Of a stretch of DNA of 64,000 nt, positions 24,730 to 24,741 are shown piece after piece (positions within the stretch are counted from its first letter, which is position 1; each line of letters opens with the position of its first letter). Source of the stretch: Girardia tigrina (lineage: Eukaryota); contig MQRK01214350.1 in assembly GCA_001938485.1 (NCBI GenBank), forward strand, positions 1-64,000, given 5' to 3'. A program made the translations under genes and the position numbers. Under the pieces are notes generated by a model that was not told the DNA's origin, made no database searches, and worked only from the letters and a program-made list of their open reading frames with translations.

Positions 24730-24741
24730 AGCTATCCGGGC
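24730..24741 (+). promoter_or_regulatory. Primer-binding position complementary to nt 1-12 of tRNA-Lys(UUU)
   Basis: AGCTATCCGGGC directly follows the LTR CA; it is the reverse complement of GCCCGGATAGCT, the 5' end of metazoan tRNA-Lys(UUU). Confidence 0.65.

Follow-up and report, generated by a model that had tools for sequence, protein, structure and literature searches.

Reverse transcription of LTR retrotransposons is primed, according to one review, in three ways: by the 3′ end of a tRNA, by a half tRNA (copia, and Ty5, with a cut in the anticodon loop) and independently of tRNA, as in Tf1 (PMC5371799). Self-priming has been described for Tf1, Tj1 and the Tf1/sushi group (PMC4600332). 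The primer-binding site (PBS) of Ty3 and Drosophila gypsy begins with TGG and pairs with the 3′ CCA end of a tRNA (PMC1635307, PMC5371799), which in Drosophila gypsy is the 3′ end of tRNA-Lys (PMC1635307). Hairpin priming has been discussed as ancestral (PMC3601003), and the primer tRNA is copied into the new site by retroviruses and not by Ty1 or Ty3 (PMC7472051).

The element described here lies in the window (the whole 64,000-nucleotide stretch of Girardia tigrina DNA that was analysed), and on our reading its clade probably uses a variant of priming by a cleaved tRNA with a Tf1-like geometry and belongs to neither the half-tRNA nor the self-priming group. Like Tf1 of Schizosaccharomyces pombe, Tj1 and sushi, the clade has a short site adjacent to the LTR that pairs with an RNA 5′ end, and a cut is needed to provide a 3′-OH (PMC4600332). 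Tf1 pairs with its own transcript, whereas the clade would pair with a host tRNA in trans; the Tf1 group has a self-complement, whereas the clade shows none in 57 loci and no chromodomain match in the proteins scanned. The self-priming match of Tf1 is 11 nt long, and a 1996 paper by Levin reportedly concerns the role of RNase H in Tf1 self-priming. As in copia of Drosophila and Ty5 of yeast, the primer would be the 5′ piece of a cleaved host tRNA (PMC5371799). Those two are Ty1/copia elements whose primer is initiator tRNA-Met with a cut in the anticodon loop and whose site faces the anticodon arm, whereas the clade has a gypsy-type Pol order, with RT before integrase and not the Ty1/copia order of integrase before RT. 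Its sites pair with nucleotides 1–12 of elongator tRNAs (Phe, Lys, Met) and not with the anticodon arm of initiator tRNA-Met, and the putative cut lies in the D stem. With Ty3 and Drosophila gypsy the clade shares TG...CA LTRs, a gag-pol with the order PR-RT-RH-IN, a polypurine tract (PPT) and 5-bp target duplications; it differs from canonical Ty3/gypsy elements, apart from the site, in a divergent RT, DUF7047, an RVT_3-type RNase H and a hairpin before the PPT. The gypsy clades MolGy, PolGy and LGF of molluscs and annelids have the same superfamily and host range, and the present clade may be one of them. In the available text of the surveys of these animals, the words “primer” and “tRNA” are absent from PMC6238403 and PMC8556966, and “tRNA” is absent from PMC8220671. 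Full-text literature searches, which included six LTR-site junction strings and had Repbase and most subscription journals outside their scope, returned no description of a site matching tRNA nucleotides 1–12; an earlier note on it in the literature or Repbase may exist.

The window element is a decayed gag-pol LTR retrotransposon of about 3.75 kb (24611–28360; Table 1). Its LTRs are identical at 112 of 119 positions, its gag lacks 105 nt near the start that are present in the sister copies, and its pol has a stop at 26580 and frame breaks further on; P0002 and P0004 are intact natural relatives. The flanks, GTAAA (24606–24610) and TTATT (28361–28365), are not a target-site duplication, whereas the sister copies (family A) carry 5-bp duplications, and the window copy may have arisen by recombination between two insertions or by a join in the assembly. 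On either side of the element lies a copy of a dispersed repeat, about 750 bp long (22774–23527 and 32024–32762, 9.2 kb apart, 81–93% alike). The minus strand of the window between 52785 and 63750 carries a second, unrelated gypsy-type pol (57033–60062), with ORFs for a Monjiviricetes-type fusion glycoprotein upstream (60771–63750), an ankyrin ORF directly downstream (56146–57027) and several further ORFs.

Table 1. Features of the window element, with positions in the 64,000-nucleotide window.
Feature	Position	Strand	Basis or remark
5′ LTR, 119 bp, TGT...ACA	24611..24729	+	sister copies share both end points
Putative PBS, AGCTATCCGGGC, exact complement of host tRNA-Lys(UUU) nt 1–12, zero spacer after LTR	24730..24741	+	sequence and host tRNA genes
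gag with CCHC zinc knuckle, ATG 3 nt past PBS	24745..25380	+	105 nt near the start missing in this copy
pol (protease, RT with YIDD, DUF7047 thumb region, RNase H, integrase; Ty3/gypsy order)	25317..28241	+	frame differs from gag
Inverted repeat, 7-bp stem CAGATTC/GAATCTG, 10-nt loop, directly before PPT	28211..28234	+	
Short polypurine tract, GGTGGTAG in window copy, GGTGGGAG in most sisters	28234..28241	+	
3′ LTR, 119 bp	28242..28360	+	

The site of this element is complementary to the 5′ end of a host tRNA. A preliminary description had reported a 12-mer flush with the 5′ LTR, without TGG, and had taken it for the reverse complement of nucleotides 1–12 of tRNA-Lys(UUU). Both statements hold: AGCTATCCGGGC abuts the LTR with no spacer and occurs once in the 64-kb window, and four host tRNA-Lys(TTT) genes (on L034 and L037) start with its exact complement, GCCCGGATAGCT. 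When the PBS region is compared with 17 host tRNA types, its match to the 5′ end of Lys(TTT) is 12 nt long, that to the next type, Lys(CTT), 6 nt, and that to any 3′ CCA end of these types no more than 2 nt. Complements of AGCTATCCGGGC reach 5 nt in the window LTR and 6 nt in the element. The 17 tRNA types and the 30 of 159 genomic complements that were examined revealed no other RNA whose 3′ end would fit; all 30 are element sequence, 23 of them inside the RT frame of another host family (family F) and 7 at LTR-leader junctions. The predicted 12-bp duplex of site and tRNA has an energy of −23.5 kcal/mol, compared with −9.2 kcal/mol for the acceptor stem that it would displace. Among 30 sister loci, the junction is visible in 26 (three lack the LTR end and one reads N), and AGCTATCCGGGC is exact in 14 of these, with one mismatch in 10 and with two in 2. 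The entire leader is conserved within family A, so that conservation of the 12-mer among the sisters says little by itself.

Three database proteins with 56–75% identity led to four further families (B–E) in the host genome, whose Pol proteins are 47–75% identical and whose LTRs and leaders are unrelated. Forty loci were fetched, and in the 13 with a usable LTR pair the boundary was set by that pair, independently of any motif. The Lys 12-mer stands at +1 in all 13 (nine exact, four with one or two mismatches), so the conservation that the preliminary description called for extends from the sisters to other families, which likewise carry 5-bp target-site duplications. The base after the 12-mer differs by family and can be A, T, C or G. 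A more distant family with 75-bp LTRs (family F) has AGCTATCGCGGC at the boundary; 6 of its 20 fetched loci have an LTR pair, two with the exact sequence and four with one mismatch. The complement of AGCTATCGCGGC is the 5′ end of host tRNA-Phe as read from a single gene, in L352, that an insert and an assembly gap interrupt: the 5′ part is followed, past the insert and a 57-nt gap, by a 3′ part with the GAA anticodon and a pairing acceptor strand. The split pieces gave no Rfam match, and an intact tRNA-Phe gene is not among the host’s 62 Rfam matches, most of which were read.

A search of the host genome (G000) for CA followed by AGCTATCSSGGC returned 3,213 matches, compared with 2 for the reversed control. 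Among the first 100 matches listed, 72 are of the Lys form, 28 are of the Phe form and none is of the two other allowed forms. These results indicate that the two dominant forms are the 5′ ends of two host tRNAs. For the AGCTATCGAGGC form, three clusters have a sister with the Phe form and three others have AGCTATCGAGGC only; where there is a Phe-form sister, the AGCTATCGAGGC copies are probably mutants. Host families with exact Thr or elongator-Met sites were not found, though those tRNAs also begin with GCC; a search for them gave 102 matches, mainly variants by a single base, compared with 77 for the control, and such families were rejected.

Two further observations concern tRNA sequences in the host genome. 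About 1.8 kb of inserted sequence interrupts the tRNA-Phe gene of L352 (89–119 and about 1888–1947), and a stretch of the gene is duplicated on both sides. Four other loci (L220, L221, L229 and L309) have tRNA 5′ halves followed by related sequence, possibly a Dada-like element that targets tRNA genes. Family F, whose putative PBS is of the Phe type, also has an exact Lys 12-mer within its RT frame, in the codons S-Y-P-G (L168–L196, 23 loci; L198–L213); of chance and a second tRNA contact, this is apparently by chance.

An alignment of 39 Pol proteins used as query found 78 metagenome loci with 30–44% identity. The site could be called in 57 of them, representing 41 families, 47 by a motif-based pattern and 10 by eye. 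On our reading the remaining 21 loci lack the LTR-gag junction (L243 retains the last 8 nt only), and no TGG site was seen. In four loci of three families (L238, L244, L255 and L282) the boundary was fixed by the LTR pair, free of any pattern. At the boundaries fixed in this way in the sisters, families B–E, family F and the metagenomes, TGG was never found. Counted by family, the complements of the sites are GCCGCGATAGCT in 11, GCCGAAATAGCT in 9, GCCGTGATAGCT in 5, GCCGGGATAGCT, GCCGAGGTAGCT, GCCCGGCTAGCT and GCCTCGGTAGCG in 2 each, and GCCTAGATAGCT, GCCGTAATAGCT, GCCCGGATAGCT and CCGATGATAGCT in 1 each; four families (L232, L281, L288 and L290) have deviant sites. The complement equals a verified tRNA 5′ end in 23 of the 41 families (host Phe in 11, human-type Phe in 9, Lys-CUU in 2 and Lys-UUU in 1), verification being by the host Phe, Lys(CTT) and Lys(TTT) genes and, for human tRNA-Phe, by a primer sequence in PMC10505166. 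Another 14 families have tRNA-like 12-mers that match no verified eukaryotic tRNA 5′ end. The metagenome loci have no assigned hosts, and agreement between site and host tRNA applies to G000 alone. In the two families with GCCTCGGTAGCG (L284 and L299) position +1 is C, and host elongator tRNA-Met is matched at 11 of 12 positions, G12 among them; the change from A to C at the first position of the site is in step with G12 of this tRNA. The CCGATGATAGCT family matches host tRNA-Tyr at 11 of 12 positions. Covariation with other tRNA 5′ ends, which the preliminary description had suggested looking for, is thus present, as the Phe type of family F in the host and as Phe, Lys and Met variants in the metagenomes. 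The site is a trait of the clade as a whole and not one tied to Lys, and Phe is the commonest type.

In the 57 metagenome sites of 41 families, the information content is 1.4–2.0 bits at +1 to +5 and +10 to +12. After 1.72 bits at +12 it drops to 0.22 at +13; at +8, opposite nucleotide 5 of the acceptor stem, it is 0.05. The pattern itself accounts in part for the high values at +1 to +5 and +10 to +12, but not for the drop at +13 or for the variability of the middle. As read from these sequences, conservation stops at nucleotide 1 of the tRNA and the middle varies as acceptor stems do. The site is preceded by CA in 37 of the 41 families, whereas the gag ATG lies 0–22 nt downstream in 35, which ties the position of the site to the LTR and not to the start codon. 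At +4, opposite A9 of the tRNA, T is present in all 41 families, and tRNAs with G9 are unused, a regularity that is partly built into the search pattern. G9 of tRNAs is often methylated on the pairing face.

In a quick, unrooted tree of 63 RT-RNase H segments, from which families E and F were left out for their short segments, the Phe variants are interleaved (L256, for example, falls inside the GCCGAAA group), and the host’s Lys families branch together with modest support. Among viral contigs, no relative was found with P0001 as query, and one weak locus was found with the Pol alignment. A scan of the viral contigs with tRNA patterns gave 39 loci. Among these, one Phe and one Met have a 12-mer in common with element sites, a weak agreement because the sources are not the hosts.

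In this clade, DUF7047 follows the RT core in all five proteins scanned and in all 120 listed homologues, and named members come from the nematode Trichuris suis, the insect Macrosteles quadrilineatus and the crab Petrolisthes manimaculis. The RT matches RVT_1 weakly (E about 1e-5 to 1e-8). The RNase H matches RVT_3 and not the gypsy RT_RNaseH models, and its four acidic catalytic residues are conserved in the 39 aligned Pol proteins. The integrase is of the DDE type, the best PDB profile match being the integrase region of Ty3 (E 1.7e-19). Direct TG...CA LTRs, gag followed by PR-RT-RH-IN, and the 5-bp target-site duplications of the sisters and families B–E place these elements among the gypsy-type elements. 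An inverted repeat with a stem of at least 5 bp precedes the PPT in 30 of 34 metagenome loci, compared with 5.5% of shuffles, although some 2-nt loops imply a shorter stem. Its stems change on both arms (TGATC/GATCA, TGAAC/GTTCA, AGCTTT/AAAGCT, TAGTGT/ACACTA and AGTTC/GAACT), and it is likely to be a second, clade-wide cis signal. The idea that this hairpin mimics the anticodon arm of the primer tRNA fits the host’s Lys and Phe families and L299, fails in L268, L273, L284 and L298, and is not put forward here.

There is strong sequence evidence that these sites would pair with tRNA nucleotides 1–12, and the feature itself is genuine and extends across the clade. The right end of the cDNA is set by the start of the minus strand, and the 3′ end of the primer must sit at the edge of the LTR. 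With nucleotides 1–12 paired, nucleotide 12 lies at that edge and C13 is mismatched, so that a full-length tRNA could not prime; we infer that the tRNA is cut or trimmed after nucleotide 12, between 12 and 13 and inside the D stem. In the mechanism that we propose, the CCHC Gag would anneal the tRNA (Phe, Lys or Met) by its 5′ strand to the site, displacing the acceptor stem, and the duplex would end where C13 stands opposite the last A of the LTR. A cut at this edge would leave a 3′-OH on nucleotide 12, directed into U5, which the RT would extend. Plus-strand synthesis may then copy the primer as far as its natural 5′ end. Such copying of the whole 12-nt primer would account for a match that ends at nucleotide 1 and follows the tRNA variant of the host; selection for pairing would account for the sharp stop as well. 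A cut that would fall every time at the edge of the duplex, in several types of tRNA and within the D stem, best fits an enzyme that reads the duplex, as in Tf1.

We consider it very probable that the fragment of nucleotides 1–12 is the primer, and probable that the 12-mer is a PBS for minus-strand synthesis from such a fragment, with a predicted cut at 12/13 by the element’s RNase H. Given a fragment primer, cutting or trimming by the element’s RT/RNase H would be the somewhat likelier route, and cutting by a host nuclease would retain a substantial chance. The preliminary description had proposed priming by a fragment of about 12 nt from the tRNA 5′ end, perhaps released by the element; the sequence data support the fragment, and it is by inference that we name the primer and ascribe the cut to the element. 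A search for dead-end products gave five junctions, four of which continue into the normal gag leader and one of which is rearranged; none marks the end of a primer. Public RNA data, as contigs that indicate presence rather than ends or strand, include one contig with the LTR end followed by the 12-mer. A longer pairing of the U5 end into the D loop, which duplex prediction had suggested, found no support, as Phe-type elements end in the same ACA despite a different D loop.

As a first alternative, a host nuclease could produce a 5′ tRNA fragment or half, of which the first 12 nt would anneal and a host exonuclease would trim the unpaired tail. Fragments of tRNA 5′ ends are common in animals, which favours a host-made primer. 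The shortest known class of host tRF-5 measures 14–16 nt, which counts against one. So does the position of the putative end, inside the D stem, the same for the Phe, Lys and Met types and always at the edge of the duplex. There is a precedent in Ty5, which uses a 3′ end made by host RNase P cleavage (PMC5371799); on balance we regard a host-made primer as rather unlikely. The 12-mer might instead dock an intact tRNA for packaging or positioning, with synthesis starting elsewhere (from the CCA end at another site, de novo or from a protein), and Ty3 and Drosophila gypsy indeed have additional tRNA-binding segments that do not prime (PMC5371799, PMC1635307). Those elements, however, retain a 3′-end site after the LTR, whereas the clade has none. 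A second site for the CCA end was rejected in seven family-A elements, where the complement of the CCA end is just 5–6 nt; complements to tRNA nucleotides 13–76 reach 9 nt in these seven, compared with 8.2–8.9 nt in shuffles. A site flush with the LTR end, with the 3′ end of nucleotide 12 directed into U5, also argues against mere docking, which we judge very unlikely.

The 12-mer might act in translation or silencing from its place upstream of gag, or bind a protein, its likeness to tRNA being incidental. This would suit the short distance to the gag ATG in most families, and the Lys 12-mer in the RT frame of family F illustrates that such a sequence can arise apparently by chance. The distance to the LTR is zero while that to the ATG is variable, the acceptor stems of several tRNAs are reproduced at the variable positions, and both dominant forms in G000 coincide exactly with host tRNA 5′ ends; all of this leaves an incidental motif hardly credible. 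Self-priming of the Tf1 type, from the element’s own 5′ end, would account for the length and position of the site and is known from fungi to vertebrates (PMC4600332). The longest complement, however, is the 5-nt one noted above in the window LTR, and in all 57 metagenome loci it is at most 7 nt within 400 nt upstream and at most 8 nt anywhere. Self-priming is refuted at the level of sequence, unless the transcripts carried non-templated 5′ ends, and we give it almost no weight.

Priming by a cut 5′ tRNA fragment, if true, adds a mode to the tRNA 3′ end, the anticodon-cut half tRNA and self-priming, and it makes one sharp prediction, a single cut at tRNA nucleotide 12/13. The clade has thousands of copies in the host genome, and a nematode, an insect and a crab also carry relatives. 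Annotation against tRNA 3′ ends only, as described in PMC4558846, would report no PBS for such elements. The site would presumably escape silencing by 3′ tRFs, which target CCA-end sites, and be exposed to 5′ tRFs. The finding also bears on how tRNA priming arose from hairpin priming or self-priming (PMC3601003). In its widest form, which we put forward tentatively and as slightly less than an even chance, a large metazoan clade marked by DUF7047 would have an RT-RNase H that takes hold of an elongator tRNA by its 5′ strand, cuts this strand after nucleotide 12 and extends the 12-mer, a fourth way of priming. If so, the RT-RNase H of this clade would be an RNA-guided tRNA nuclease, linking Tf1-type self-priming with tRNA priming.
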